From positions 1 through 64,000 of the IMG/VR virus record IMGVR_UViG_3300029305_001134: a DNA stretch of 64,000 nt; one strand, 5' to 3'. The notes under the pieces are model-generated. The model saw only the letters and a program-made list of their open reading frames with translations, ran no database searches and was not told the DNA's origin. This DNA is from a virus (Duplodnaviria > Caudoviricetes). The position numbers and the translations under genes are program-made. This document shows positions 35,857 to 62,704 of the stretch, in pieces; position 1 is the stretch's first letter, and each line of letters opens with the position of its first letter.

Positions 35857-36186
35857 ATGGAAATTGCTATAGCATTTATCGCAGCGATGGGAATACCAAG
35901 TGCTATTACGGGATTTTTATTTTGGTGGCTGAAGCGTAGTATTGATAAACGTGAAAAGAAATCTGAAGAAAGAGAGAAAACTACAGAACAGCTCATGTTA
36001 ATCATCATGAAAAACAGCAGAGCTACGAATGTATTAGCAGAGGCAACAGCAAAAGCAGTCCAACGTATTCCAGACGCTCATTGTAATGGCGATATGACGG
36101 CTGCTCTTGAACTTGCCGAAAAAATTCAGAAAGAAGAAAAAGATTTCATGTTTGATCAAGGTATAAAACATATTTTCGGAGATTAA
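35857..36186 (+). CDS. single-TM holin-like protein
   Basis: N-terminal TM followed by coiled coil; HCNGDM motif. Confidence 0.65.
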   Translation: MEIAIAFIAAMGIPSAITGFLFWWLKRSIDKREKKSEEREKTTEQLMLIIMKNSRATNVLAEATAKAVQRIPDAHCNGDMTAALELAEKIQKEEKDFMFDQGIKHIFGD

Positions 36187-36206
36187 TAAGAAAGGCGGTA
36201 GTAACT

Positions 36207-36467
36207 ATGAAAAATATTAACTGGATTGTACGAATTAAAAACAAAAACTTTTGGATAGCTATTATTCCAGCAGTATTGCTGTTGATTCAGGTGGTAGCTG
36301 CCGTGTTCGGATTCAGTCTTGACTTAGGCGATTTGGGTAATAAGTTACTCGCGGTTGTTAATGCTGTGTTTATGGTATTATCAATTCTCGGTGTAGTAGT
36401 AGACCCAACGACAGCTGGAATCGCAGACAGTACACAGGCTATGACTTACAGTGAACCAAAGAAATAA
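36207..36467 (+). CDS. holin, phiLC3 family
   Basis: INWIVRIKNKNFW...LGVVVDPTTAGIADS. Confidence 0.88.
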   Translation: MKNINWIVRIKNKNFWIAIIPAVLLLIQVVAAVFGFSLDLGDLGNKLLAVVNAVFMVLSILGVVVDPTTAGIADSTQAMTYSEPKK

Positions 36468-36476
36468 TGTGAATGA

Positions 36477-36512
36477 AGGGCCTCGTTGAACAAACGGGGT
36501 CTTTTGTTTTTC
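36477..36512 (+). terminator. terminator ending the late operon
   Basis: AGGGCCTCGTT..AACGGGGTCTT followed by a T-run. Confidence 0.8.
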
Positions 36513-36551
36513 TTCAAAATGGAATTCGCGACCTATACGAGTCCTTTTATG

Positions 36552-36698
36552 AGAGAGAATTAGGAATGACTCCAATGACGATATTAAATAAAGATATGAA
36601 AAAATTAATATTATCAGGAGACGCTGGCCTACTAGACGGTCTTTATCAGATACAGTCTAATTGAGCGGGTTCGAGTCCTACAGATACGCATTCTCTCT
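36552..36698 (+). ncRNA. candidate small RNA with a terminal stem and a T-loop-like element
   Basis: AGAGAGAAT (36552) pairs with ATTCTCTCT (36690) followed by a T-run; GGTTCGAGTCC at 36668. Confidence 0.45.
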
Positions 36699-36791
36699 TA
36701 TTTTTCTATTTGAACGAAGTGAAAACAGGTGAACTTTAGTTGAATTCGCGACCTATACATACCCTATTATGAGATAAAAACCAAAAAGGAG

Positions 36792-37010
36792 ATGTTTAAC
36801 ATGGAAGTTAAAACTAAAGGCTATGATATTGAGCAAGTAGTTGATGTAATTGAAATGTTATCATATTCACAAGGTTTTTACGGACGATTATTAGAAGAGA
36901 TCCTATATATTGAGGAGAACGAACCAGCTAAGTACGAAGTATTTAAGCAAATTATCGAGAAACAGGAGTTTGAAGACCCTGTGGACGTAGTGCTATTCTT
37001 CGAAGGCTAG
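36792..37010 (+). CDS. small acidic hypothetical protein (cassette)
   Basis: motif + RBS + terminator; start may be 36801. Confidence 0.75.
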   Translation: MFNMEVKTKGYDIEQVVDVIEMLSYSQGFYGRLLEEILYIEENEPAKYEVFKQIIEKQEFEDPVDVVLFFEG

Positions 37011-37082
37011 GACGAGTCCTTAACAAGGGCTCTTCATTTTCTCTCGCGACCGAAACATTTCTTTTATGAGGAGGTGATATGA

Positions 37083-37334
37083 ATGGTATGGTATAAATTA
37101 AAACAGGACTTTTCTAGAAAAGAAGCGAAACTAATTTTAAAGTATATGCAAGAAATTATTGACGAGTACGGCTATGTAACTCTCGCCGATTTTTATGATC
37201 TCGTAGATGTTAGAAGAGTTGTCTACACGGATAATAAAAAACGTTGGCGTTCGTTAAATGGGGCTAGAGTATCGTTGTTTAAAGGTAAATATGGGTATAG
37301 AATAAAATTACCGGCTTTTGAGGAATTGTCATGA
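37083..37334 (+). CDS. hypothetical protein, paralog of 52079 and 53394
   Basis: IIDEYGYVTLADFYDL motif. Confidence 0.8.
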   Translation: MVWYKLKQDFSRKEAKLILKYMQEIIDEYGYVTLADFYDLVDVRRVVYTDNKKRWRSLNGARVSLFKGKYGYRIKLPAFEELS

Positions 37335-37459
37335 CGTAAATCAATATCATATTGCACTAAAACAATAAGGGCTTAGGAGAAATCTTAGGCTCTTCTTTTT
37401 CTTTTCGCGCTTCCTACACTTCCTTTTATGGGAAAACATTTCGAAAGGGGACAATCAAA

Positions 37460-37780
37460 ATGGCTAGATTTAATGCGAAAGAAGAAACATGGTTGAAAGT
37501 AGAAGTCTTAGGAAAAGAAGGTTTATTTATAGATTTACGAATCGATAGAAAGACTGTTCCAGAAGGCTATCATATGTACGAGGTAAGACACTCTGATGAT
37601 GATTGGGGTGAACCTGTAGAGATAGGCGAATGGATTATGGTAAATTTCTTCGGCACGTTATTGATGAAAGAACCATTCGAATTAGAGAAATCTACTGCGG
37701 TCAATAATGCTTATTTGTGGTTAGAGAATCCAGAAGATTTTGGGTATCTTGGAGAAACTGTAGAATTTGGAGAGAGTTAA
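37460..37780 (+). CDS. LPD28-like domain protein
   Basis: LRIDRKTVPEGYHMYEVRHSDD..P..I...VNFFGTLL pattern. Confidence 0.7.
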   Translation: MARFNAKEETWLKVEVLGKEGLFIDLRIDRKTVPEGYHMYEVRHSDDDWGEPVEIGEWIMVNFFGTLLMKEPFELEKSTAVNNAYLWLENPEDFGYLGETVEFGES

Positions 37781-37851
37781 ACATGCTCTCTTCTTTTCGC
37801 GTAAATTACTGATCCTCTTATAGAAAAACCAAAATAAAAGGAGGAAATATT

Positions 37852-38079
37852 ATGTTTGAAAATAAAATTATCAAAGGAGAGTATGCGAGTAGATATATCG
37901 CAAGCTGGATTCGAGTAGGTGGACAACTCAGATATGGTAAGGATGAAGATGATTTTAACGAATGGTTATTATCATTAGGTCTTACCGAAGATGAGGCGTA
38001 CTACATTACGAATTTAGCACGATGTGGTAAACTCGAAATGCAGACACACGCACAGATGTTTTTAAAGAATAGACGTTAA
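37852..38079 (+). CDS. hypothetical protein (cassette)
   Basis: RBS AGGAGG; 75 aa. Confidence 0.75.
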   Translation: MFENKIIKGEYASRYIASWIRVGGQLRYGKDEDDFNEWLLSLGLTEDEAYYITNLARCGKLEMQTHAQMFLKNRR

Positions 38080-38184
38080 TAGAATTCAAAATGGTTTGCG
38101 AGGGAGGTCTACAAAGGCTTCTCTTTTCTTTTTCGCTAAATAAACAATCTATATTATAGAAAAAACAATCAAGGAGGAACGATT

Positions 38185-38346
38185 ATGAAAGTAGTAGTTG
38201 ACAATTTTAGTTATAAGGGTAAATACTATGATAAATTTGAGTGTGAATTACCAGTATCGGATTTAAATAGTATTAGCAGTAAAGAATTATCGGCTATGTT
38301 TACCGAACAAATCGATATTTTTGAAGGAAGAAAGGAGTCTCACTAA
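38185..38346 (+). CDS. 53-aa hypothetical protein (not in the ORF track)
   Basis: MKVVVDNFSYKGKYY...; RBS AAGGAGG; motif at 38132. Confidence 0.7.
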   Translation: MKVVVDNFSYKGKYYDKFECELPVSDLNSISSKELSAMFTEQIDIFEGRKESH

Positions 38347-38464
38347 TGGGGCTTCTTTTATTTTTCTGCTTGAATGAAACGAGAACAGACGAATTGTACG
38401 GATGAGCTATTTCGCGCCTCTTACACGTCCTCTTATGAAGACAAATAGCGAAAGGATGATTGCT

Positions 38465-38689
38465 ATGTGTAAAGTGTATGAATTCCCACAACAAACTGAG
38501 CTTCCAAAAGAAGAGGCGGAATTACTCGAAATTTTAGGCGAGGCGTATGTGAAAGCATTATACAACGCATTAGTCAAAATGGTGGGTGGTGGAGCTTCTC
38601 GTGATGAAATGGAAGAGGTTAATGGGCTAGTACATCGAGCATTTTTGAAAGGTATGAACAAAGCGCTAGAGGAATATGAGAAGTCCTGA
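38465..38689 (+). CDS. hypothetical protein (cassette)
   Basis: MCKVYEFPQ...; RBS AAAGGA; motif at 38411. Confidence 0.7.
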   Translation: MCKVYEFPQQTELPKEEAELLEILGEAYVKALYNALVKMVGGGASRDEMEEVNGLVHRAFLKGMNKALEEYEKS

Positions 38690-38748
38690 ACAAGGGCTTT
38701 TCTTTTTTCGCTAAATAAACACTTCGTTTTATGAGGAGGTGATTTGGA

Positions 38749-38928
38749 ATGATACAAACTGATTTCGTAAAACTCAATAACAAAGACGAAAGATTCAGAT
38801 TTTCAACAAAACTGGTATGCGTTATAAAACCGATTATTCGAGTAGTATTAACACCGATATTCTTGTTGATTAGATTATATTGTTGGGTTTGGGATTACGA
38901 TTATTACGAGATATTTTTCAAACGCTAA
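38749..38928 (+). CDS. 59-aa hydrophobic protein (not in the ORF track)
   Basis: MIQTDFVKL...; RBS GAGGAGGTG. Confidence 0.65.
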   Translation: MIQTDFVKLNNKDERFRFSTKLVCVIKPIIRVVLTPIFLLIRLYCWVWDYDYYEIFFKR

Positions 38929-38982
38929 AAACAATAGAACTGGGCTCATAACGAGTCCTTTTCTTTTTCTCCCCCAACCCAC

Positions 38983-39130
38983 TGGACTTTTTACCTTAAA
39001 CAACCGTGTGCTGTCGAGTGAGCACCCTGATGATAAAGTCATTTCTCCGATTATATTTACTGTTGGACTTTTGACCTTAAACAACCGAGGGCTTCTCTGT
39101 ACGCACTCTGTTCATAAAGTCGTTTCTCCA
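38983..39130. repeat. two tandem 56-bp att-like sites (81-bp period)
   Basis: GACTTT-N44-AAAGTC at 38985-39040 and 39066-39121; shared ACCTTAAACAACCG; divergent centres; just 3' of the recombinase. Confidence 0.75.
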
Positions 39131-39171
39131 ACATAAGAAAAACCCCGCCGTAGCAAGGTTTCTCAGGGTTG

Positions 39172-41022
39172 TTATATTTTCAGATGCATCACGATTTCCA
39201 TGTCATCTTTGTCTGTTTTACGTCTTGTGAGCTTAGTTGTCTTCGAATATATGATTCTGTTTATGATTGATTTCAATGACTCATTCTTTTGTGGTATACT
39301 CATATTGTCGTATTCATTTAAGCAGTCTTCCAATTTGGGGATTGCTTTTTTATATCTAATTAACTTTTCTTCCTCTTCGGTATTTTCGAATTTGGCCAGT
39401 TTACGTTCAATCGAATCAATTTCTTTTTCGATGTCGTTCTTCAACTCGATATAATCATCGTATGATATTTCTTCACGATTTCGAGTACGTAATAAATTCT
39501 TCCGTTCAGTTTTTAATCCAGTCAATTTCTTCTCTAATTTCAAAATGGTTTTGTGCGTATCGTCTCTTTCTTTAATAATTTCCTCTTCATAGTTATCTAC
39601 ATAATATTTAAAATCTTTTAATTCTTCTTTTAGCTGCCTTAATACTTCTTTCTCTAATTTCGGAAGCACGCAAGACACCATATCGCAGTTTTGGTTACTA
39701 CACATGAACGTATCTGCTCCAGGTGGTTTCTCCTCATATGTTAGTAATTGCTTATCGAATTCATCAGTCTCGATATCTAGGAAGAATTTTAACTCGAACC
39801 ATTTTTCGCTGAATAAATCCGTGTAATGTAGCTTCTCAGGATCAGGTCTAAACCAATCATTTATCTTACTACGAGATACTCCGAGAAAATCTGCTATCTG
39901 TTGACTGGTAACACCCTTCTTAGCTCTAGCTTCTCGAATTAATTGGTTGATAGCCACTTTATTAACTTTATATTTTCGTACCCGTTTAATTTCTTTCTTT
40001 CTACGATTCTGTACCCGAACGAGTGAGTAACCGCATTTCTTACAGAACACCAAACCAGCCAAAGGATTCTTTAGTTCTCGATTCCAGCCAGTTTTGTCAG
40101 GCTTATTTTTCCGCAGTCTCTCCTGTGCCATATCCCATTTCTCTTTACTGATAATACCTTCTTGTCTACCTCGAACTAACATATATTCTTCTGGGCTTGG
40201 TCTAAACTTGTGTAACTCTCCGTTTATAAGTTTCTTTACTACTGGTCTTTTACCCCAAGCGAGATCGCCGTAATAAACTTCATTCTTTAAAATATGTCGG
40301 ACCATTTCGTCATTCCATAGTTCAGCTATACGAGGTTTTAATTCGTGCTTGTTCAAATAATTCGCTGTCTCCAGAGTAGATAAACCATCATCAACAAAAG
40401 CTGAGAACAGAGCTTCAACGATTGGTGCTTCATTCTGGTCTTTAATTAACATGAATCCTCTATCGAGTGGCTTACGAGCATAACCAAAAGGAGGAGTGCT
40501 ACCAATCCATTTACCTTCACGTAATGATAATTGTCTACCACGACCTAATATTTCTTTTGTATATTCCAAATATTTATTACCTTGTAGTAATTGAGCTTCG
40601 AATATTTCTTTATCAAATTTGTTATTCAAATCATATGCTTTGGTTATTGTGGCGATTATCGTATTCGTATATTTCAGAATTTGTACAACACGACCACAGT
40701 CTAACATTTCACCACGAGATATACGCTGAGGTTCAATCACGAGTAATACAGAACCTTCTTCCTTCTCTAATCGATGAAACACCTTCTTAATCTCAACACG
40801 ATCGTCTATTGTCTCGCCAGAAACAACTTCACGATAGATATTTTCTTCAGGTATTTTCTCTCCGAATGTTTGTATAGCATATTCTTGAAGAATCGTTTCA
40901 TGTCGGGATAATACTTCTTCAACACTTTCTTTACCTTCCGCACGAGATTTCCTCAGATAGATAATTACTCGTCGTACACTTATTTTTCCTAATTCGTATG
41001 GTGTTATGATATTTAAGCTCAT
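39172..41022 (-). CDS. large serine recombinase (integrase) with an XRE-type HTH inserted in the zinc ribbon
   Basis: YLRKSR catalytic motif, EVVSGE, RISRG, PPFGY, CKKCG; RBS AAAGGAG supports the MSLNII start at 41022. Confidence 0.92.
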   Translation of the reverse strand: MSLNIITPYELGKISVRRVIIYLRKSRAEGKESVEEVLSRHETILQEYAIQTFGEKIPEENIYREVVSGETIDDRVEIKKVFHRLEKEEGSVLLVIEPQRISRGEMLDCGRVVQILKYTNTIIATITKAYDLNNKFDKEIFEAQLLQGNKYLEYTKEILGRGRQLSLREGKWIGSTPPFGYARKPLDRGFMLIKDQNEAPIVEALFSAFVDDGLSTLETANYLNKHELKPRIAELWNDEMVRHILKNEVYYGDLAWGKRPVVKKLINGELHKFRPSPEEYMLVRGRQEGIISKEKWDMAQERLRKNKPDKTGWNRELKNPLAGLVFCKKCGYSLVRVQNRRKKEIKRVRKYKVNKVAINQLIREARAKKGVTSQQIADFLGVSRSKINDWFRPDPEKLHYTDLFSEKWFELKFFLDIETDEFDKQLLTYEEKPPGADTFMCSNQNCDMVSCVLPKLEKEVLRQLKEELKDFKYYVDNYEEEIIKERDDTHKTILKLEKKLTGLKTERKNLLRTRNREEISYDDYIELKNDIEKEIDSIERKLAKFENTEEEEKLIRYKKAIPKLEDCLNEYDNMSIPQKNESLKSIINRIIYSKTTKLTRRKTDKDDMEIVMHLKI

Positions 41023-41130
41023 GGAAAAATTTACTCCTTTTCTTAGATGACTTTTTATATTACGCTTCAAATAGTAAACTTTCATAATTTGCTGAATACT
41101 TACATATCTTTCATCGAGGTGGTTAAAAAC

Positions 41131-41283
41131 ATGAAAATTACAGTTGTCAGAAACGAACCAACGAAGGAAGTCCTTCAAAATATTTATGACGTAATGAACA
41201 GAAATATTAAAAATCCAAAATGTTTTTATACGTCAGAAGAAACTAAAAAATTAAAGAAGGACAAATCCAACGTGTGGCTGTAA
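41131..41283 (+). CDS. 50-aa protein divergent from the integrase
   Basis: RBS GAGGTGG; MKITVVRNEPTKE... Confidence 0.6.
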   Translation: MKITVVRNEPTKEVLQNIYDVMNRNIKNPKCFYTSEETKKLKKDKSNVWL

Positions 41284-41293
41284 TGGCTGCGCG

Positions 41294-41677
41294 TTATTTT
41301 TTAATTTGCTCTCTGACTGATAAGTATAATTTCATGATATTTTCGTATAGGTCTTGTTTCTCTTCTAATGATACTTTGTCATTTTCAAATATTAGTCTAG
41401 CTCGTTCTAATAAATCTACAGTTTCTATTTCATCGGTTTTACATCCAAGTGTCTCGATTGAAACGTTAAAATAATCTGCGAGTATCTTTATTTGATGGAT
41501 ATTTAAGTTCCTTTTACCTGTCTCTAGATTTGATACTTGTCCTCTCGATAACGGTCTTCCTGTTGCTCTATTTCCTAAAACTATTCCTAACTCATCTTGT
41601 GTTATATTTCTCATTTTTCTTAATTGTCTCACCCGACCACCTATTTCTTTTGTATCGAGCGTCTTTTGAATTTGCAT
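41294..41677 (-). CDS. XRE-family HTH repressor without a peptidase domain
   Basis: IGGRVRQLRKMRNITQDELG...VSNLETG...LADYFNVS. Confidence 0.88.
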   Translation of the reverse strand: MQIQKTLDTKEIGGRVRQLRKMRNITQDELGIVLGNRATGRPLSRGQVSNLETGKRNLNIHQIKILADYFNVSIETLGCKTDEIETVDLLERARLIFENDKVSLEEKQDLYENIMKLYLSVREQIKK

Positions 41678-41773
41678 CGGATATCACTTTCCTTTCTTAT
41701 AATAAAGTACATGTTTCATTCTACACAAAAATATTCAAATAGCAAACTTTTTAGTTCGAAATTTAAAAACTTA

Positions 41774-41833
41774 TTTACAAATTCTAAAAATTATATTAAG
41801 ATAGCAATGTAAACACGTATGGAACATACGTTC
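41774..41833 (+). promoter_or_regulatory. sigmaA-like promoter plus Firmicute LexA (Cheo) box
   Basis: TTTACA(41774)-17 bp-TAAGAT(41797); GAAC-ATAC-GTTC at 41822-41833. Confidence 0.7.
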
Positions 41834-41861
41834 TAATCTTAATCGATAGGAGTGAACCGCT

Positions 41862-42038
41862 GTGGATGGTGTAGCGAAGGTTATTGACGAATTGGGATTG
41901 ATGATTTTACAGAAAGATATTGAGCTTGAATTAAAACAAAATGAGATCGATAAATTAAAAAGAAAGATAGAAATGATTGAACAATACTTAGACATGTACG
42001 AGGATAATTGCAACTACGATTTCGCATTAAAACGATAA
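41862..42038 (+). CDS. 58-aa coiled-coil protein under the LexA box, candidate antirepressor
   Basis: RBS AGGAG, GTG start; MDGVAKVIDELGLMILQKDIELELKQNEIDKLKRKIE... Confidence 0.65.
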   Translation: MDGVAKVIDELGLMILQKDIELELKQNEIDKLKRKIEMIEQYLDMYEDNCNYDFALKR

Positions 42039-48827: not shown

Positions 48828-48922
48828 GAGAGAAAGATAAGGTAACTATTACCTAGAATGATCGCATTTTAAGAGCTGAGAAAAATGGGAATTGGCGGTA
48901 GCTTCATTCGTATCATTCTCTT
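48828..48922 (+). ncRNA. candidate four-way-junction RNA (~95 nt)
   Basis: closing stem GAGAGAAAGATA/TATCATTCTCTT plus three internal hairpins. Confidence 0.55.
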
Positions 48923-48968
48923 TTTGTTCTTCCTACTTCACAAATCCAACCGAAAGGTGTTGTCACAA

Positions 48969-49754
48969 ATGAATGGCCTAGTTAATAGCGTCAAAATATT
49001 TGGTAAACGTAATGCATCAACAATTCTTACAGTGGTAGGAGGCGTTGGCGTGTTAATTACTTCTATCATGGCAGTGAAAGCGACACCTAAAGCTATGACG
49101 ATATTAGAACAAGCGAAGGATGAGAAAGGTGAAGAGTTAACTAAATTTGAGAAATTCAAAATGGCGGGTCCTAGTTATATTCCAGCTACAATCGTAGGTA
49201 TTGGGACGGTTACTTGTATATTCGGAGCTAACGTACTAAATAAACGTCAACAAGCAGCTCTAGTTAGTGCGTATACATTAGTAGATAGCTCCTACAAACA
49301 ATATCGCCATAAATTAGTTGAATTATACGGTAAAGATACACATAATGAAATCGTGGACGCCATCGCCGTAGAAAAAGCTGAAGAAGTTGGGATTTATGCT
49401 GAAAGTCTATGTGCGAATACTTGTCTAACTGACGAAGAATCTTGCGGAGAACCAGTTTTGTTCTATGACGAATTCGGTGGAAGATATTTTGAGTCGACTA
49501 TCGAACAAGTTATCGCGGCTGAGTATCATACAAATCGCAATTTTACACTACGTGGGTACGCAGTATTAAACGAACTATACGAATTTCTCGGTTTAGAACC
49601 TACTGATTATGGTAATACAGTTGGCTGGGCTGTAGATAGCGACCTATATTGGATCGATTTCAATCATAGGAAGACTGTACTTGAAGATGGACTCGAATGT
49701 TATATTCTAGAGTCTTACTGGTCTCCAAGTGCTGACTTTTTAGAATATTATTAA
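48969..49754 (+). CDS. DUF6353-like protein, paralog 1
   Basis: ILTVVGGVGV..AVKATPKA...LNELYEFLGL..VGW; RBS AAAGGTG before MNGLV. Confidence 0.75.
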   Translation: MNGLVNSVKIFGKRNASTILTVVGGVGVLITSIMAVKATPKAMTILEQAKDEKGEELTKFEKFKMAGPSYIPATIVGIGTVTCIFGANVLNKRQQAALVSAYTLVDSSYKQYRHKLVELYGKDTHNEIVDAIAVEKAEEVGIYAESLCANTCLTDEESCGEPVLFYDEFGGRYFESTIEQVIAAEYHTNRNFTLRGYAVLNELYEFLGLEPTDYGNTVGWAVDSDLYWIDFNHRKTVLEDGLECYILESYWSPSADFLEYY

Positions 49755-50080: not shown

Positions 50081-50866
50081 ATGAATATGTCAAACGTAAC
50101 TAAAGTATTAAAAACAATCGGAACTGGATTAAATAAACACAAGCCAGCGATTCTTACAGGCATGGGTATTGCTGCGGGTGTAACATCCACAGTATTAGCA
50201 GTTAAAGCCACACCAGATGCTATGGAATCTATCAAAATGGCAGAAGAAGAAAAAGGCGAAAAATTGACTAAAATGGAAGTTGTAAAAGTAACTTGGAAAC
50301 ATTATATCCCAGCGATTGCTACAGGGGTTACAGCGGGTGTATGTGTTGTTGGTGCTAATGCTGTTCATAATAAACGTAGTGCCGCTTTAGCAACTGCATG
50401 TCAGATTTCTGCGACAGCCCTTAACGAATACAAAGAGAAAACTATCGAGACTGTAGGTGAAGAAGCCGAGAAACAGATTCGTGAGAAAATTGTTAAGGAT
50501 AGAAAAGATAAAGTTGAGAAAAAAACAGCGAGTGAGAATCATACTGTATTCGTTTCGGAAGATGGCGAATATACAATTCGTGAACCTTATTCCAATCAGA
50601 CTTTTAGATCATCCGAAGAAAAAGTAATAAAAATCATGAATAATCTCAACGGACGAATGATCGATGGAGCTGAAATGTATATGTCCGTAAATGAATTACT
50701 CGATGAATTCGGTTTGGACCATTACGAGTTGGGTGATGATATCGGATGGACCGTAAATGATCGAATTGATTTAATGATTGATGTAGAGAAATCAAAAACA
50801 GGCAAACCACGAGCTGTTATCAGATATTTGAACCCAGCAAAACATGATTTCAGAAAATTACACTAA
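50081..50866 (+). CDS. DUF6353-like protein, paralog 2
   Basis: ILTGMGIAAG..AVKATPDA...VNELLDEFGL..IGW. Confidence 0.75.
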   Translation: MNMSNVTKVLKTIGTGLNKHKPAILTGMGIAAGVTSTVLAVKATPDAMESIKMAEEEKGEKLTKMEVVKVTWKHYIPAIATGVTAGVCVVGANAVHNKRSAALATACQISATALNEYKEKTIETVGEEAEKQIREKIVKDRKDKVEKKTASENHTVFVSEDGEYTIREPYSNQTFRSSEEKVIKIMNNLNGRMIDGAEMYMSVNELLDEFGLDHYELGDDIGWTVNDRIDLMIDVEKSKTGKPRAVIRYLNPAKHDFRKLH

Positions 50867-55201: not shown

Positions 55202-56158
55202 ATGACAAAAGTAGAATTAATGAATAAAGCAAGTAGAGCTATGCATAAAGTAGCTTTCAAATTTAAAAAACACAGCCCTGAAATTATGATTGTGACAGGT
55301 GTTGTTGGTGTTGTAACAAGTGCGGTAATGGCTTGTAAAGCTACTACTAAACTTAGTGAAATTATGGAAGAAGCAAATAATCAGATTGACGAAATCAAAT
55401 ACGCGATGGAACATCCTGAAACCGTGCCAGCAACTTCCAAAGGAGAATATACAGAAGAAGCTGGTAAGCATGATTTGACTATCACTTATGCGAAAACAGG
55501 ATTTGAATTGTTTAAACTCTACGCTCCAGCTGTAGGTGTAGGCATTGCTTCTATTACTATGATTCTTGCAGGTCACAATATTACTCGTAAGCGTTTGGCG
55601 GTTTCTACAGCAGCTTATACAGCACTCGATACAGCATTCAAAGATTATCGTGGACGTTTGATCGAACGATTCGGTAAAGATTTGGACAAAGAATTACGAT
55701 ACAACTTAAAAACAAAAGAAGTAGAAGAAGTAATCGTGAATGAAGATGGCTCTGAGACTATCGTTAAGAAAACAGTCGAGGAAGTTGACAATCCATTGGC
55801 ATTGTACAGCGATTATGCTAAATTCTTTGACGCTAGCTGCCCAGATTTCGAAAAAGACCCAGAACTTAACTTTATGTTCTTACGTGCTCAGGAACGTTAT
55901 GCGAATGAACAGTTAAAACGTAAAGGTTATATGTTTTTGAATGATGTATACGAATTAGTTGGTATTCCACGTACAAAAGCAGGGCAGTTCGTTGGTTGGA
56001 TTTACGACGATAAAAATCCAGAACATGACGGTGATAATTTCATCGATTTCGGTATTACAGACAGAACTAAAGAAGGTAGTCGTTTGTTTGTTAACGGTCG
56101 CGAAAGTGTTATTCTGTTAGACTTCAACGTTGACGGACCTATCGTTGATTTAATCTGA
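55202..56158 (+). CDS. DUF6353-like protein, paralog 3 (possible UGA read-through to 56281)
   Basis: SPEIMIVTGVVG..ACKATTK...FLNDVYELVG..VGW...LLDFNVDG. Confidence 0.8.
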   Translation: MTKVELMNKASRAMHKVAFKFKKHSPEIMIVTGVVGVVTSAVMACKATTKLSEIMEEANNQIDEIKYAMEHPETVPATSKGEYTEEAGKHDLTITYAKTGFELFKLYAPAVGVGIASITMILAGHNITRKRLAVSTAAYTALDTAFKDYRGRLIERFGKDLDKELRYNLKTKEVEEVIVNEDGSETIVKKTVEEVDNPLALYSDYAKFFDASCPDFEKDPELNFMFLRAQERYANEQLKRKGYMFLNDVYELVGIPRTKAGQFVGWIYDDKNPEHDGDNFIDFGITDRTKEGSRLFVNGRESVILLDFNVDGPIVDLI

Positions 56159-57956: not shown

Positions 57957-60725
57957 GTGCTTGACTTTTTAATAATTTCAACACGTCCTACGAGAAATGG
58001 CATCGAGATTTACCCAAACTGGCGAATGTATCCCAAAAGTAAAGACCTTATGATTCGAGGTGGGGATTTCTACGCGGTTTGGGTTGAAGAACTTGGACTT
58101 TGGTCTACGAATGAAGATGATGTTTTTAAACTCGTGGACCGTGAGTTAGACAGATATGTGAATGAACACACAGACAAATTCGATGGACATCCTAGAATTT
58201 TGTATATGTGGGATTCTCAATCCGGTATGGTTGATTCGTTTCATAAGTATTGTCAAAAACAGATGAGAGATTCTTATGAAGTATTAGATGAGGAATTGAT
58301 ATTTTCTAATACTGAAACAAAACGAGAAAACTATGCCAGTAAAAAACTTGAATATCCTCTCGAAGTAGGGAGTATCACAGCGTACGATAAGCTTATTGGT
58401 ACTTTATATTCTCCAGAGGAAAGACATAAACTCGAATGGGCTATCGGAGCTATCGTATCAGGAGATTCGAGATACATTCAGAAGTTTATGGTATTGTATG
58501 GTGCAGCCGGAACAGGTAAATCTACAATTTTAAATATTATTCAGAAACTTTTTAACGGTTATTATGCGGTGTTCGATGCTAAGGCGTTGGGCTCGTCTAA
58601 TAACCGTTTTGCTTTGGGTGCATTTTCGAATAACCCATTAGTGGCGATTCAGCATGACGGTGATTTGTCCAGAATTGAAGACAACACGATTCTTAACTCG
58701 TTAGTATCTCACGAAGAAATGCCTGTAGATGAGAAATTCAAGAGACCGTATGTAACTCGATTCAAATGTTTCTTATTTATGGGTACGAATAAACACGTAA
58801 AGATTACTGACGGTAAATCTGGTTTGTTGAGACGTCTGATTGATGTTTCTCCTACTGGAAATAAAGTTAGTCCTGAAGAATACGAAAGATTGATCGGACA
58901 GGTTGATTTTGAGTTAGGTGCTATCGCTCAGCATTGTTTGGACGTTTATAATGATGATCCAGATTTCTATGACGATTATATTCCAACATCAATGATTGAA
59001 GCCTCTAACGATTTTCATAACTTCATTATCGATTCGTATGATGTTTTTAAGAAAGAAGATGGAACAACACTTAAAGCTGCATGGGAAATGTATAAAACCT
59101 ATTGTGAAGAAGCTAGAGTACCTTATCCGTTTTCTAAGAGAAACTTTCAGGAGGAATTGAAGAACTATTTTAAGAATTTCGATAGAACATACGAAGATGA
59201 AAACGGTAATACTCTGAGACAGTATTATAGCGTGTTCAATATGAAGTTATTGAGGGAGTTCGAGAAAGAGGTAGTTTATAGCGATAAGAAAGAAGAACCT
59301 AAACAAATCGAGAAAAAGAAGAGTTGGTTGGAGTTTAATTGTACAACTTCACTATTCGATGAGGAGTATAAAGATTGCCCTGCTCAATATGCTAATTCAG
59401 CTGGAACGCCTAATAAAAAATGGGAAGATGTTAAAACAACGTTAGGAATGCTCGATACAAGTAAAGTTCACTATGTAAAAGTCCCTGAAGTTCATATCGT
59501 AGCGGATTTTGATCTCAAGGATGAAACTGGTGAGAAATCATTCGAGTTGAACTACGAAGCGGCTAGTAAATGGCCCGCTACATATGCCGAACTAAGTAAA
59601 AGTGGTGCGGGTATTCATTTACATTATATTTATACTGGCGATGTATCGCAGCTCAGTAGAATTTACGATGATGATATTGAAATCAAAGTATTCACGGGCG
59701 GTAGTTCGCTGAGACGTAGATTAAGTAAATGTAATGATATTCCGATTGCTACTATTAGTTCTGGTTTACCTTTAAAGGAGGTGAAAGGAAATATGATGAA
59801 TTTTGATGGCATTCAGAGTGAGAAAGCTTTACGTACTCTCCTCAAACGCCATTTGAATAAAGAAATTATGGGATTTACAAAACCCAGCGTTGATATGATT
59901 TACAAGATTTTAAATGAAGCATACGAAAGTGGCGTTGGGTATGATGTTAGCGACTTACAGGATGCTGTTTATGCTTTGGCTATGAGTAGTTCGAATCAGG
60001 CTAACGCTTGTATCAAAATGGTTAATCAGATGAAGTTTAAGTCTGAAGAGGCTAATGAGACGATAAATGATAGTGGAGATGATAGATTGATATTTTATGA
60101 CGTGGAAGTGTTTCCTAATTTGTTCTTGGTTAACTGGAAAGTCCAAGGTGAAGGAAAGAAAGTTGTTCGTATGATCAACCCAAAACCACATGAGATTGAG
60201 GAATTGATTAAACATAAGCTTGTGGGCTTTAACAATTTAAATTATGACAATCATATGATTTATGGCTGTTTAATGGGATATTCAAACGAAGAATTATACA
60301 GATTGTCGCAACGTTTGGTTAGTAACGATAAAGAGTTACAAAGAAATTCAAAATTCAGCGAGGCATATAACTTATCGTATACAGATGTTTATGATTTTTC
60401 AGCTAAGAAACAAAGTTTAAAGAAATGGGAAATTGAACTTGGTATAAAACATCATGAATTAGGACTTGATTGGGATAAACCAGTACCGGAAGAAATGTGG
60501 GAAAAAGTAGCCGAATATTGTGACTCAGACGTTGTGGCAACGGAAGCTGTATTTAACAATAGACATGCTGACTGGGTGACTAGACAAATTTTAGCCAAAT
60601 TATCCGGGTTAACGGTAAACGAAACTAATCGTAGACATATCAATAGATATATTTTTGGTACAAACAGAAAACCTGAGTTGCTATATACAGATTTAGCTAC
60701 AGGTGAACAATTCCCAGGGAGGTGA
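57957..60725 (+). CDS. SF3 helicase - AEP primase - 3'-5' exonuclease fusion (N-terminal part of the replicase)
   Basis: Walker A YGAAGTGKST; AEP motifs ADFDLKD and SKSGAGIHLHY; exonuclease FYDVEVF, GFNNLNYD, YCDSDV. Confidence 0.85.
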   Translation: MLDFLIISTRPTRNGIEIYPNWRMYPKSKDLMIRGGDFYAVWVEELGLWSTNEDDVFKLVDRELDRYVNEHTDKFDGHPRILYMWDSQSGMVDSFHKYCQKQMRDSYEVLDEELIFSNTETKRENYASKKLEYPLEVGSITAYDKLIGTLYSPEERHKLEWAIGAIVSGDSRYIQKFMVLYGAAGTGKSTILNIIQKLFNGYYAVFDAKALGSSNNRFALGAFSNNPLVAIQHDGDLSRIEDNTILNSLVSHEEMPVDEKFKRPYVTRFKCFLFMGTNKHVKITDGKSGLLRRLIDVSPTGNKVSPEEYERLIGQVDFELGAIAQHCLDVYNDDPDFYDDYIPTSMIEASNDFHNFIIDSYDVFKKEDGTTLKAAWEMYKTYCEEARVPYPFSKRNFQEELKNYFKNFDRTYEDENGNTLRQYYSVFNMKLLREFEKEVVYSDKKEEPKQIEKKKSWLEFNCTTSLFDEEYKDCPAQYANSAGTPNKKWEDVKTTLGMLDTSKVHYVKVPEVHIVADFDLKDETGEKSFELNYEAASKWPATYAELSKSGAGIHLHYIYTGDVSQLSRIYDDDIEIKVFTGGSSLRRRLSKCNDIPIATISSGLPLKEVKGNMMNFDGIQSEKALRTLLKRHLNKEIMGFTKPSVDMIYKILNEAYESGVGYDVSDLQDAVYALAMSSSNQANACIKMVNQMKFKSEEANETINDSGDDRLIFYDVEVFPNLFLVNWKVQGEGKKVVRMINPKPHEIEELIKHKLVGFNNLNYDNHMIYGCLMGYSNEELYRLSQRLVSNDKELQRNSKFSEAYNLSYTDVYDFSAKKQSLKKWEIELGIKHHELGLDWDKPVPEEMWEKVAEYCDSDVVATEAVFNNRHADWVTRQILAKLSGLTVNETNRRHINRYIFGTNRKPELLYTDLATGEQFPGR

Positions 60726-60729
60726 GTAA

Positions 60730-61365
60730 ATGTTTTTTGAAGATGAGAATGATAGATATCAATATTTTCCACCACAATACGTTTTCGGCGACGATTGTTA
60801 TATACCGGATGAATATATGGAAGAAAAATGGTGGTATATGGATAATAATGACCCAAACTATATGATAAGTAATTACGGCAGAGTCTATTCGACTAAAACA
60901 CGTCGATTCGTGAAGCCTAAAAAAATGGATAGAGAAGGCCATTTAGGAGTAGGATTATGTCGTGACGGTAAACGATTCTATAGATATTTACATAGATTAA
61001 TAGCAGAAGTCTTTATTCCTAATCCACATAATTATCCGATAGTACGACATCTTGACGATAATAAAGAAAATAATGATATTGAAAATTTAGCTTGGGGAAC
61101 ACAAAAAGATAATATGCGTGATGCTGTTCGTAATGGGCGTAACCACAGGTTTACTGCCGAAGATAGAGAAAAAAATCTCGAAATACAGAGAATTCCCATC
61201 AGAGCGATCAATTTGGATACTGGTGAAGAAATAGTATTTAGAAGTCAATCGGAAGCTGCTAGAGAATTAGGTATTTATCAAGCAAATATTTGGAAAGTTC
61301 TTAATGGACAGCGTAATAAAACATGCGGATATTATTTCGAGTATTTAGAAAAACGAGGTGTGTGA
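60730..61365 (+). CDS. HNH homing endonuclease (NUMOD4-HNH-NUMOD1, I-HmuI-like architecture)
   Basis: YMISNYGRVYS; HRLIAEVFIPNP..VRHLDDNKENN..NLAW; FRSQSEAAREL. Confidence 0.9.
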   Translation: MFFEDENDRYQYFPPQYVFGDDCYIPDEYMEEKWWYMDNNDPNYMISNYGRVYSTKTRRFVKPKKMDREGHLGVGLCRDGKRFYRYLHRLIAEVFIPNPHNYPIVRHLDDNKENNDIENLAWGTQKDNMRDAVRNGRNHRFTAEDREKNLEIQRIPIRAINLDTGEEIVFRSQSEAARELGIYQANIWKVLNGQRNKTCGYYFEYLEKRGV

Positions 61366-61366
61366 G

Positions 61367-62704
61367 ATGAGTGAATATGTTAACGCATTTCCAGGCTACG
61401 AATTTAAATATGTAGAAGGATTTAAGACCAAACAGAATATGTATCGTGGAACTAACTTAGGGTTCGGTGGATACGTATATTATGAAGAAGGCGCATATAG
61501 AAACGTTGCACTTCTTGATGTTCAATCCCTTCACCCAGCTTCAATTATCTCTCTGAACAAATTTGGTAAATATACCGACAAATATCGAGAATTGCGTGAT
61601 TTGAGAATTGCAATCAAAGAGCATGATCTCGATAGAGCTAGAAAGATGATGGGGGGAGCTTTAGCGGATTTTCTGAATAACGAGGAGGAAGCCGACCAAT
61701 TAGCACAAGCCGCCAAATTGATATTAAATTCGACCTATGGCTTTTGTTCAGCAACATTCGAAAACCCTTTTAAAGATTCGAGAGATTCAAATAATATCGT
61801 AGCCCTGAAAGGCGCGCTGATGATGCGAACATTACAAGATGAGGTTCAAAAAAGAGGGTTTACTGTAGCTCACATCAAGACCGATAGTATAAAGATACCA
61901 GATGCTACTCCAGAAATCGTAGAATTTGTTATGGAATTCGCTAAACCTTATGGATACGTTTTCGAATTCGAAGCATTATACGACCGAATGTGTTTAGTTA
62001 ATGGTAGTACTTATATCGCTAAGTATGCATCTCCAGAAACTTGTGAAAAAATTCACGGAAGAGTCCCTAAAGATAATAGAAAACATCCTAATGAATGGAC
62101 AGCTACAGCCAAACAATTTCAAGTGCCATATGTATTTAAAACATTATTTAGCAAAGAACCAATCGAATTTAACGATTTATGTGAGACGTTCGAAGTTAAA
62201 GCTGGTGTTCTGAATCTGGATATGAACGAAAATCTAACTGACGTATCGGTGTATGAAACTGAGTATGAAAAATTAGAGGACAAATATAAAAAGGGTCAAT
62301 TATCCGATACAACTTTCGAAAGCGAATGTCAAAGATTGAATGACTTAATCGCTGAAGGACATAATTATCGTTTTATCGGTAGGGTAGGTAGATTCTGTCC
62401 TGTACTACCTGGTAGTAATGGTGGGGTTCTGTATCGTAAACAGAATAATAAATATTATGCTGCTACCGGTTCAAAAGGATTTAGATGGTTGGAAGCGGAG
62501 ACTGTAGATTTATTAGATAAAAAAGATCAAATCGATAAATCGTATTATCATAAATTGGTAGATGATGCTGTCGAAGCTATCTCTAAATATTGTGATTTTG
62601 AACAATTTGTCTCCGATGACCCTTACATACCAGAACCAAAAGAACCAGTATACGATTGGATGAACATTCCAGAAGATGCACCAGAGGAGTTACCATTCGA
62701 CTAA
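61367..62704 (+). CDS. family B-like DNA polymerase catalytic part (C-terminal part of the replicase)
   Basis: LLDVQSLHP, AKLILNSTYG and HIKTDS motifs; RBS GAGGTG before ATG 61367. Confidence 0.87.
   Translation: MSEYVNAFPGYEFKYVEGFKTKQNMYRGTNLGFGGYVYYEEGAYRNVALLDVQSLHPASIISLNKFGKYTDKYRELRDLRIAIKEHDLDRARKMMGGALADFLNNEEEADQLAQAAKLILNSTYGFCSATFENPFKDSRDSNNIVALKGALMMRTLQDEVQKRGFTVAHIKTDSIKIPDATPEIVEFVMEFAKPYGYVFEFEALYDRMCLVNGSTYIAKYASPETCEKIHGRVPKDNRKHPNEWTATAKQFQVPYVFKTLFSKEPIEFNDLCETFEVKAGVLNLDMNENLTDVSVYETEYEKLEDKYKKGQLSDTTFESECQRLNDLIAEGHNYRFIGRVGRFCPVLPGSNGGVLYRKQNNKYYAATGSKGFRWLEAETVDLLDKKDQIDKSYYHKLVDDAVEAISKYCDFEQFVSDDPYIPEPKEPVYDWMNIPEDAPEELPFD

Follow-up and report, generated by a model that had tools for sequence, protein, structure and literature searches.

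Two tandem att-like sites with different, conserved cores beside a large serine recombinase gene of a 100-kb phage: candidate attP sites for a single integrase

The window analyzed here, a stretch of 64,000 nucleotides, corresponds to the first 64 kb of an IMG/VR record of 100,079 bp, which is linear, CheckV 100% complete and has a GC content of 37%. The phage encodes a large terminase, a portal protein and a prohead protease, and a host belonging to the Bacillota is suggested by its Shine-Dalgarno sites together with its intrinsic terminators. The locus of interest is a 243-bp intergenic region, bounded by the end of an ORF at 38928 and by the stop codon, at 39172, of a gene on the minus strand. 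This minus-strand gene (39172-41178) codes for a large serine recombinase (LSR), and directly downstream of it lie two tandem att-like units, which are referred to as X (integrase-distal) and Y (integrase-proximal). The units are bracketed by convergent terminators. On the plus strand, a terminator-like hairpin (38942-38958; with its T-run, 38942-38968) ends the late/accessory gene block, and on the minus strand the intrinsic terminator hairpin of the integrase gene is found at 39137-39164; X and Y are therefore probably untranscribed, or little transcribed. An earlier note on this DNA had proposed att-like sites beside a serine recombinase, and this is where they are found, between the terminator of the late operon and that of the integrase. 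Upstream of the integrase gene, in a lysogeny module, is a gene for a CI-like HTH_3 repressor, as identified by Pfam (41294-41677, minus strand), whose position is conserved in every related locus. Late, lysis and small accessory genes lie to the left of the repeats, and plus-strand early genes lie beyond the repressor gene. The gene order (late genes, site, integrase, CI-like repressor, divergent early genes) is that of a temperate integration module. Temperate siphoviruses classically have their attP here, in the gap between convergent units beside the integrase.

The LSR is the only serine recombinase found in a whole-genome search of the 100-kb genome, and no tyrosine recombinase was found in such a search. 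The maximal ORF has 668 residues, and the relatives are called at 615-639 residues. There are Pfam matches to Resolvase (8.9e-10) and Recombinase (2.5e-19), as well as a match to Zn_ribbon_recom (4.8e-05) that is just under the cut-off. In an alignment of 26 homologues, the residues of the YLRKSR and QRxSRG motifs of the catalytic region are invariant, and the structure model has long C-terminal helices. This is the architecture of an LSR, in which an N-terminal resolvase domain, carrying the catalytic serine and motifs of the RxSR type, is followed by a recombinase domain and then by a zinc ribbon bearing a coiled coil. In the structure model, a helical, HTH-like module is present between the β-strands of the zinc ribbon, before the coiled coil (residues ~355-420 of a 617-residue reading of the protein, corresponding to ~39766-39963 of the window). 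The inserted module has pLDDT values of 84-90, the remainder of the LSR model being weak. The HTH_3 and HTH_17 Pfam matches to the insert are weak, as are the HTH matches at residues 414-444. The insert occurs together with att sites that have conserved arms extending ~34 bp from the center instead of ~25 bp, and it may be speculated, from the model, that the inserted module reads the outer arm motifs. In the low-coverage, 2.97-kb contig L073, the integrase frame diverges after residue 606, away from the att site, and the divergent frame (L073:2725-2974) enters the start of an opposite-strand UvrD/PcrA-like helicase gene; this contig may be chimeric through misassembly, or the rearrangement may be real.

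The tandem is detected by a repeat search as two direct 66-nt copies, at 38983-39048 and 39064-39129, with an 81-bp period and 79% identity. Of the 66 bases, 52 are identical, whereas 200 shuffles of the 243-bp intergenic region give best direct matches of 28.9 bases on average and 34 at most. Two in-register GACTTT-N44-AAAGTC units, 81 bp apart, with a common arm (ACCTTAAACAACCG) and divergent centers, had been described earlier; they are present at 38985-39040 and 39066-39121, and this description is exact base for base. The unit length of 56 bp given with it is too short, as the comparison with the relatives gives ~69 bp, with outer TNGGA...TCCNA motifs. Within these limits, unit X extends from 38982 to 39050 and unit Y from 39063 to 39131, each having 69 bp with arms arranged as 33+2+34 when read on the minus (integrase) strand. 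The core of X on this strand is GTGCTCAC-TC-GACAG, and its predicted central (crossover) dinucleotide at 39016-39017, which is TC on the integrase strand and GA on the plus strand, aligns with the TC dyad center of the relatives. The core of Y is GTGCGTAC-AG-AGAAG, and its predicted central dinucleotide at 39097-39098, AG on the integrase strand and CT on the plus strand, aligns with the AG centers of the relatives L076, L074 and L048. The two cores thus differ in five consecutive central bases, being TCGAC in X and AGAGA in Y on the integrase strand. The units are separated by an AT-rich spacer of 12 bp (39051-39062), and a similar spacer (TAAATAT...) is seen in L042 and L043. No other occurrence of the arm motifs of X and Y was found in the 100-kb genome.

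Two other readings of the tandem were rejected. Stop-free frames run through the units on both strands in several phages, without credible starts; these frames lie between the convergent terminators and differ in L007, and a coding function was therefore discarded. A res site of a small serine resolvase (Tn3/γδ type) would have three subsites of differing spacing; X and Y are instead equal in length and geometry, the enzyme is an LSR, and most relatives have a single site.

The relatives of this phage allow the geometry of the sites to be compared across a family. Integrase relatives at 63-93% identity occur in ENA and Logan metagenome assemblies, on contigs of up to 105.7 kb. L003, the sole relative from a single-protein search of species genomes, is a phage-form contig binned in a 'Bacteroidales' MAG, and L048, also in the phage form, was added by an alignment-based IMG/VR search. 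The 12 distinct relatives (L042, L043, L007, L006, L044, which is identical to L072, L011, L076, L074, L041, L009, L003 and L048) and the window make a small sample of 13 phages, with integrases that are 60-94% identical. In 12/12 relatives, an att-like imperfect palindrome follows right after the integrase terminator, and it is followed in turn by the late-block terminator and genes. The presence of phage genes on both sides, as expected for the unintegrated state and as noted earlier for the window, is therefore confirmed for the window and is the same in all relatives examined.

When the 420 bp after each integrase gene of the relatives are scanned for 34+2+34 symmetry in an unbiased way, the best dyad center is the dinucleotide that aligns with the unit centers of the window in 9/9 single-site relatives (in L009 it ties with the terminator). 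The scores of these single-site relatives are 18-23/34, compared with 14-18 for the next-best centers, except for the tie in L009. The dyad center is TC in L006, L044, L011, L041, L003 and L009, and AG in L076, L074 and L048; the X unit of L007 is, like the site of L006, symmetric about TC. In the window, a dyad scan of 38600-39500 has its top center at 39097 (20/34) and its second at 39016 (19/34), and both coincide exactly with the dinucleotides predicted from the relatives. The inverted ends pointed out in the earlier note hold in so far as the units are attP-like imperfect palindromes, but the scores of the window's own units are not above the shuffle maxima (mean 19.2, max 23) and their symmetry, taken alone, is not significant; the symmetry argument therefore rests on the family and not on the window alone.

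The sites of the 13 phages fall into two core classes. The X class, with the core [CT]A[CT]-TC-GAC, is the sole site in L006, L044, L011, L041 and L003, and in variant form in L009. The Y class, with the core TA[CT]-AG-AG, is the sole site in L076 and L074, and the site of L048 is AG-centered with a different right side. Both classes occur in tandem in the window, L042, L043 and L007, so that an X-type site alone is found in six phages, an AG-centered site alone in three, and both together in four. The order is integrase-Y-X in the window, L042 and L043, and integrase-X-Y in L007. The core of L076, GTGCGTAT-AG-AGAAG, is only one base from the Y core of the window. The two distinct core types proposed earlier for the window are thus real, discrete and conserved across the relatives. 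In the integrase tree, L076 and L074, which have Y only, form the sister group of a clade with good support that comprises L011 (X) and a group of six members, being L044 (X), L006 (X), L007 (X-Y), and L043, the window and L042 (each Y-X). The arms track the integrase clades, both arms of a site changing together (TTGGAG/CTCCAA, GTTGTA/TACAAC and GTTAGGG/CTCTAAC), whereas the core classes cut across these clades. This is what is expected if the integrase reads the arms and the partner site constrains the cores.

The dependence of the arms on the integrase clade bears also on the idea that the units are not recombinase sites, being instead operators for another DNA-binding protein of the phage, or an RNA or DNA element with a defined structure. 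Any dimeric protein could, in principle, bind to inverted and direct repeats, and the minus-strand fold of Y is somewhat more stable than those of shuffles (z = -2.5), which can be explained by Y being palindromic. The fold of X is no better than those of shuffles (z = -0.3), no relevant Rfam family is found in a scan of 36000-42000, the two arms are in part not complementary, both being rich in A on one and the same strand, and little transcription is to be expected between the convergent terminators. As the site is, in addition, always directly after the LSR gene, with arms that change with the integrase clade, a role as operator or structured element is hardly to be believed. Judged from the sequences, the units resemble LSR attP sites in their position and in the co-variation of their arms, and probably, to judge by the relatives, in their geometry.

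The integrases of the tandem phages share 88-94% protein identity and 49-54% identity at four-fold degenerate sites, which shows that synonymous positions are near saturation. The 69-bp units of the window, L042 and L043 are much better conserved, the Y units being 84-87% and the X units 77-87% identical, as compared with ~50% at synonymous sites, and both units are therefore under purifying selection. X and Y are ~72-77% identical to each other, within genomes as between genomes, and the units group by type, X or Y, and not by the genome they come from. The duplication therefore predates the divergence of these tandem phages, and the sequences give no sign of ongoing homogenization of X and Y.

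It is consequently very improbable that the repeat is a neutral tandem duplication or a recombination scar with a functionless second copy. An 81-bp tandem duplication is mechanistically easy and tandems are seen in one sub-clade only, as this explanation would have it, but neither the preservation of both copies nor the grouping of orthologous X and Y units across genomes agrees with it. It also does not agree with the match between the Y core and the sole site of the sister clade, nor with the existence of a second arrangement, integrase-X-Y, in L007.

In the reading that is favored here, and that we consider probable though only just so, X and Y are two attP sites of one integrase, having crossovers that are not interchangeable and serving two alternative attB targets. 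An LSR dimer binds an attP site of ~50 bp through its recombinase and zinc-ribbon domains; such a site is an imperfect inverted repeat that is cleaved at the dinucleotide in its center, and productive religation requires that both partners have the same dinucleotide (PMC3783163, PMC5499854). Since the arms of X and Y have the same motifs with the same spacing, integrase dimers should bind both units. After circularization of the genome, the phage would then integrate either through X or through Y. Because the central dinucleotide must match between partners, each site would pair productively only with its own attB, such that X would complete recombination only with a TC-centered attB and Y only with an AG-centered attB. 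The two insertion loci would be the same two targets that sister phages use singly. Such an arrangement could be of benefit by giving access to different host lineages, or by offering a second choice where a host lacks one attB or has it filled by a related prophage; its cost would be that the unused attP remains intact inside the prophage. The binding by the integrase, the crossover at TC or AG, the two attB sites and the selective advantage are features that we infer from the comparisons described above.

Each core class stands alone in some of the related phages, which argues strongly, though indirectly, for the ability of each to function as an attP site. There are also points that count against two attP sites. 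The apparent span of X and Y, ~69 bp, is longer than the ~50 bp of characterized LSR attP sites, and a spare attP in the prophage could cause rearrangements if both attB sites are in one chromosome. It is also conceivable, though unlikely, that only one unit is a working attP and that the other is a conserved accessory site, which binds the integrase without recombining with the chromosome. For example, it could hold the integrase near the real site, titrate it, or affect read-through at the end of the integrase gene. The arm motifs common to both units fit such a function, as the same protein should bind both, and no attB was found for either unit. In the same direction points the Y unit of L007, which has divergent arms, its left side being most like the L076/L074 clade. 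These arms suggest a separate origin of this unit, and it is perhaps a less functional copy; it may escape recognition by the integrase of its own phage, in which case not every tandem need be fully functional. An accessory role is more difficult to reconcile with the finding that each core class is the sole site in several relatives, where it would have to be sufficient alone, and no requirement for accessory sites is known among LSRs (PMC3783163). Moreover, the five-base change is located exactly at the predicted crossover, where it would be irrelevant to pure binding, and yet it is conserved.

Integrated forms were searched for in several ways, but for neither the phage of the window nor any relative did these searches yield an integrated prophage, an attB, an attL or an attR. 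All contigs carrying the integrase or relatives at an identity of at least 63% are at most 106 kb long and collinear with the phage form, and there is no integrated copy among more than 120 integrase clusters, the absence from metagenome contigs being weak evidence. There are no integrase relatives in 399 sampled Clostridia genomes (E <= 1e-100), a nucleotide search of GenBank phages gives no match, and at the protein level all matches to phages and plasmids are below 60% identity. A search by exact peptide words of one representative genome per species found no integrated relative. Pattern scans of IMG/VR (left arm, right arm and integrase terminator) and of JGI metagenomes (integrase terminator) give chance matches only. 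In the MAG of L003, a search for attB with the 16-nt core, allowing at most 2 mismatches, gives three weak matches without att-like flanks, consistent with chance.

Alternatively, the sites and the recombinase could serve the resolution of replicon multimers or another intramolecular reaction in a phage that persists unintegrated, with the two sites being alternative or redundant. This possibility, which we regard as decidedly unlikely, draws on the lack of integrated copies among the integrase clusters and on the long contigs, which are about genome length and have a common start point, so that the free linear form dominates. In the ~96-106 kb contigs of four independent assemblies (the record of the window and the contigs behind L006, L007 and L009), the integrase is 38.6-42.3 kb from the same contig end. 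This indicates defined genome ends and a dominant free form. The record of the window has no terminal repeat, and the genome ends of the family seem to be fixed, of the cos or short-overhang type, rather than the result of circular permutation. A function in resolution is at odds with the gene order, which matches a temperate integration module, and a non-exhaustive scan found no partition or plasmid-replication genes among the proteins scanned. Characterized LSRs do not recombine identical attP sites (PMC3783163), and the missing integrated copies carry little weight when contigs come from metagenomes.

Comparing X and Y with the attP sites of characterized LSRs (Listeria A118/LI, Bxb1, φC31 and SprA of SPβ), the location beside the integrase is shared, and probably also the imperfect inverted repeat around a non-palindromic central dinucleotide and the lack of accessory sites. 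In SPβ, too, the att site is downstream of the integrase gene, at a distance of a few hundred bp. The minimal attP sites are 39-52 bp long and the SPβ att sites share a 16-bp core (PMC3783163, PMC5499854), whereas here there are two complete tandem sites of ~69 bp each with different crossovers. The integrase of the window also differs from SprA, to which it is only ~29% identical over part of its length, in having the extra helical insert in the zinc ribbon.

Altered central dinucleotides give orthogonal site pairs, as described for φC31 assembly systems (PMC3936721). The engineered attP/attB pairs described there resemble the arrangement proposed here, as one integrase serves several pairs that do not cross-react because of their overlap sequence; those pairs are man-made, whereas the arrangement in the window is natural and conserved, with five bases changed rather than two. 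A similarity also exists with the multi-targeting LSRs (Durrant et al. 2022, PMC10083194), in which one recombinase lineage has more than one chromosomal target. These have a single element-borne site with relaxed or motif-based specificity, whereas the phage of the window would carry two dedicated sites with predicted targets. The genome of CTXφ also has two neighboring att-type sites, attP1 and attP2 (PMC4246890, PMC3442271). In this filamentous, XerCD-dependent phage, the inverted dif-like sites fold in single-stranded DNA into one functional attP that is used by host tyrosine recombinases, whereas the window has two sites in direct orientation, double-stranded and independent of each other, for a serine recombinase of the phage itself. 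A limited literature search, which does not prove absence, turned up no tandem pair of attP sites in nature that belongs to a serine integrase. What is new with respect to the known systems is a tandem that is maintained by selection and has different crossovers, the conserved span of ~69 bp, and an LSR with a modeled helical insert.

If both sites work, this phage departs from the usual scheme of one integrase, one attP and one attB, hedging its integration locus through two sites that are not interchangeable. This would bear on host range, on the competition of related prophages for attB and on genome stability, as the spare attP would be active in the prophage. It would also provide genome engineers with a naturally tuned, ready-to-use orthogonal site pair for one enzyme. 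The extra module would further point to a subfamily of serine integrases with an additional DNA-binding module and longer, potentially more specific sites. A wider proposal, plausible but falling somewhat short of probable, is that a 100-kb gut phage lineage has kept a natural orthogonal attP pair for its single serine integrase, choosing between two docking sites that are also the sole targets of sister phages, and reading its ~69-bp sites with the extra HTH-like module. This would be the first natural case of dinucleotide-orthogonal multiplexing, otherwise known only from synthetic biology.

Some other properties of these genomes are also recorded. The integrase terminator is almost invariant in relatives down to 73% integrase identity. 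Its core, CCTTGCTACGGCGGGGTTTT, is near-invariant in the window, L042, L043, L006, L007, L044, L011 and L076, despite integrases that are only 73% identical and synonymous sites that are saturated, and by this comparison the hairpin appears to be far more conserved than a terminator needs. The more distant relatives L074, L041, L009, L003 and L048 have a different terminator hairpin. In the early region, a family of unknown function (phrog_2152) has three paralogues, at 48885-49754, 50081-50866 and 55202-56158 (E = 1e-63 to 1e-84). The DNA polymerase (phrog_4210) is split over the ORFs 57957-60725 and 61358-62704, with a 211-residue ORF (60730-61365) between them, an arrangement suggestive of a mobile element or of an insertion of the intein/HNH type. 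A single-subunit RNA polymerase of the YonO type (phrog_4291, E = 0) is encoded at the genome's right end, at L047:12660-15740 (genome positions 96660-99740). Its nearest cultured relative is that of the Faecalibacterium phage FP_oengus, with 46% identity, and the closest record is that of an unannotated human fecal phage (MT835495.1), with 70% identity.
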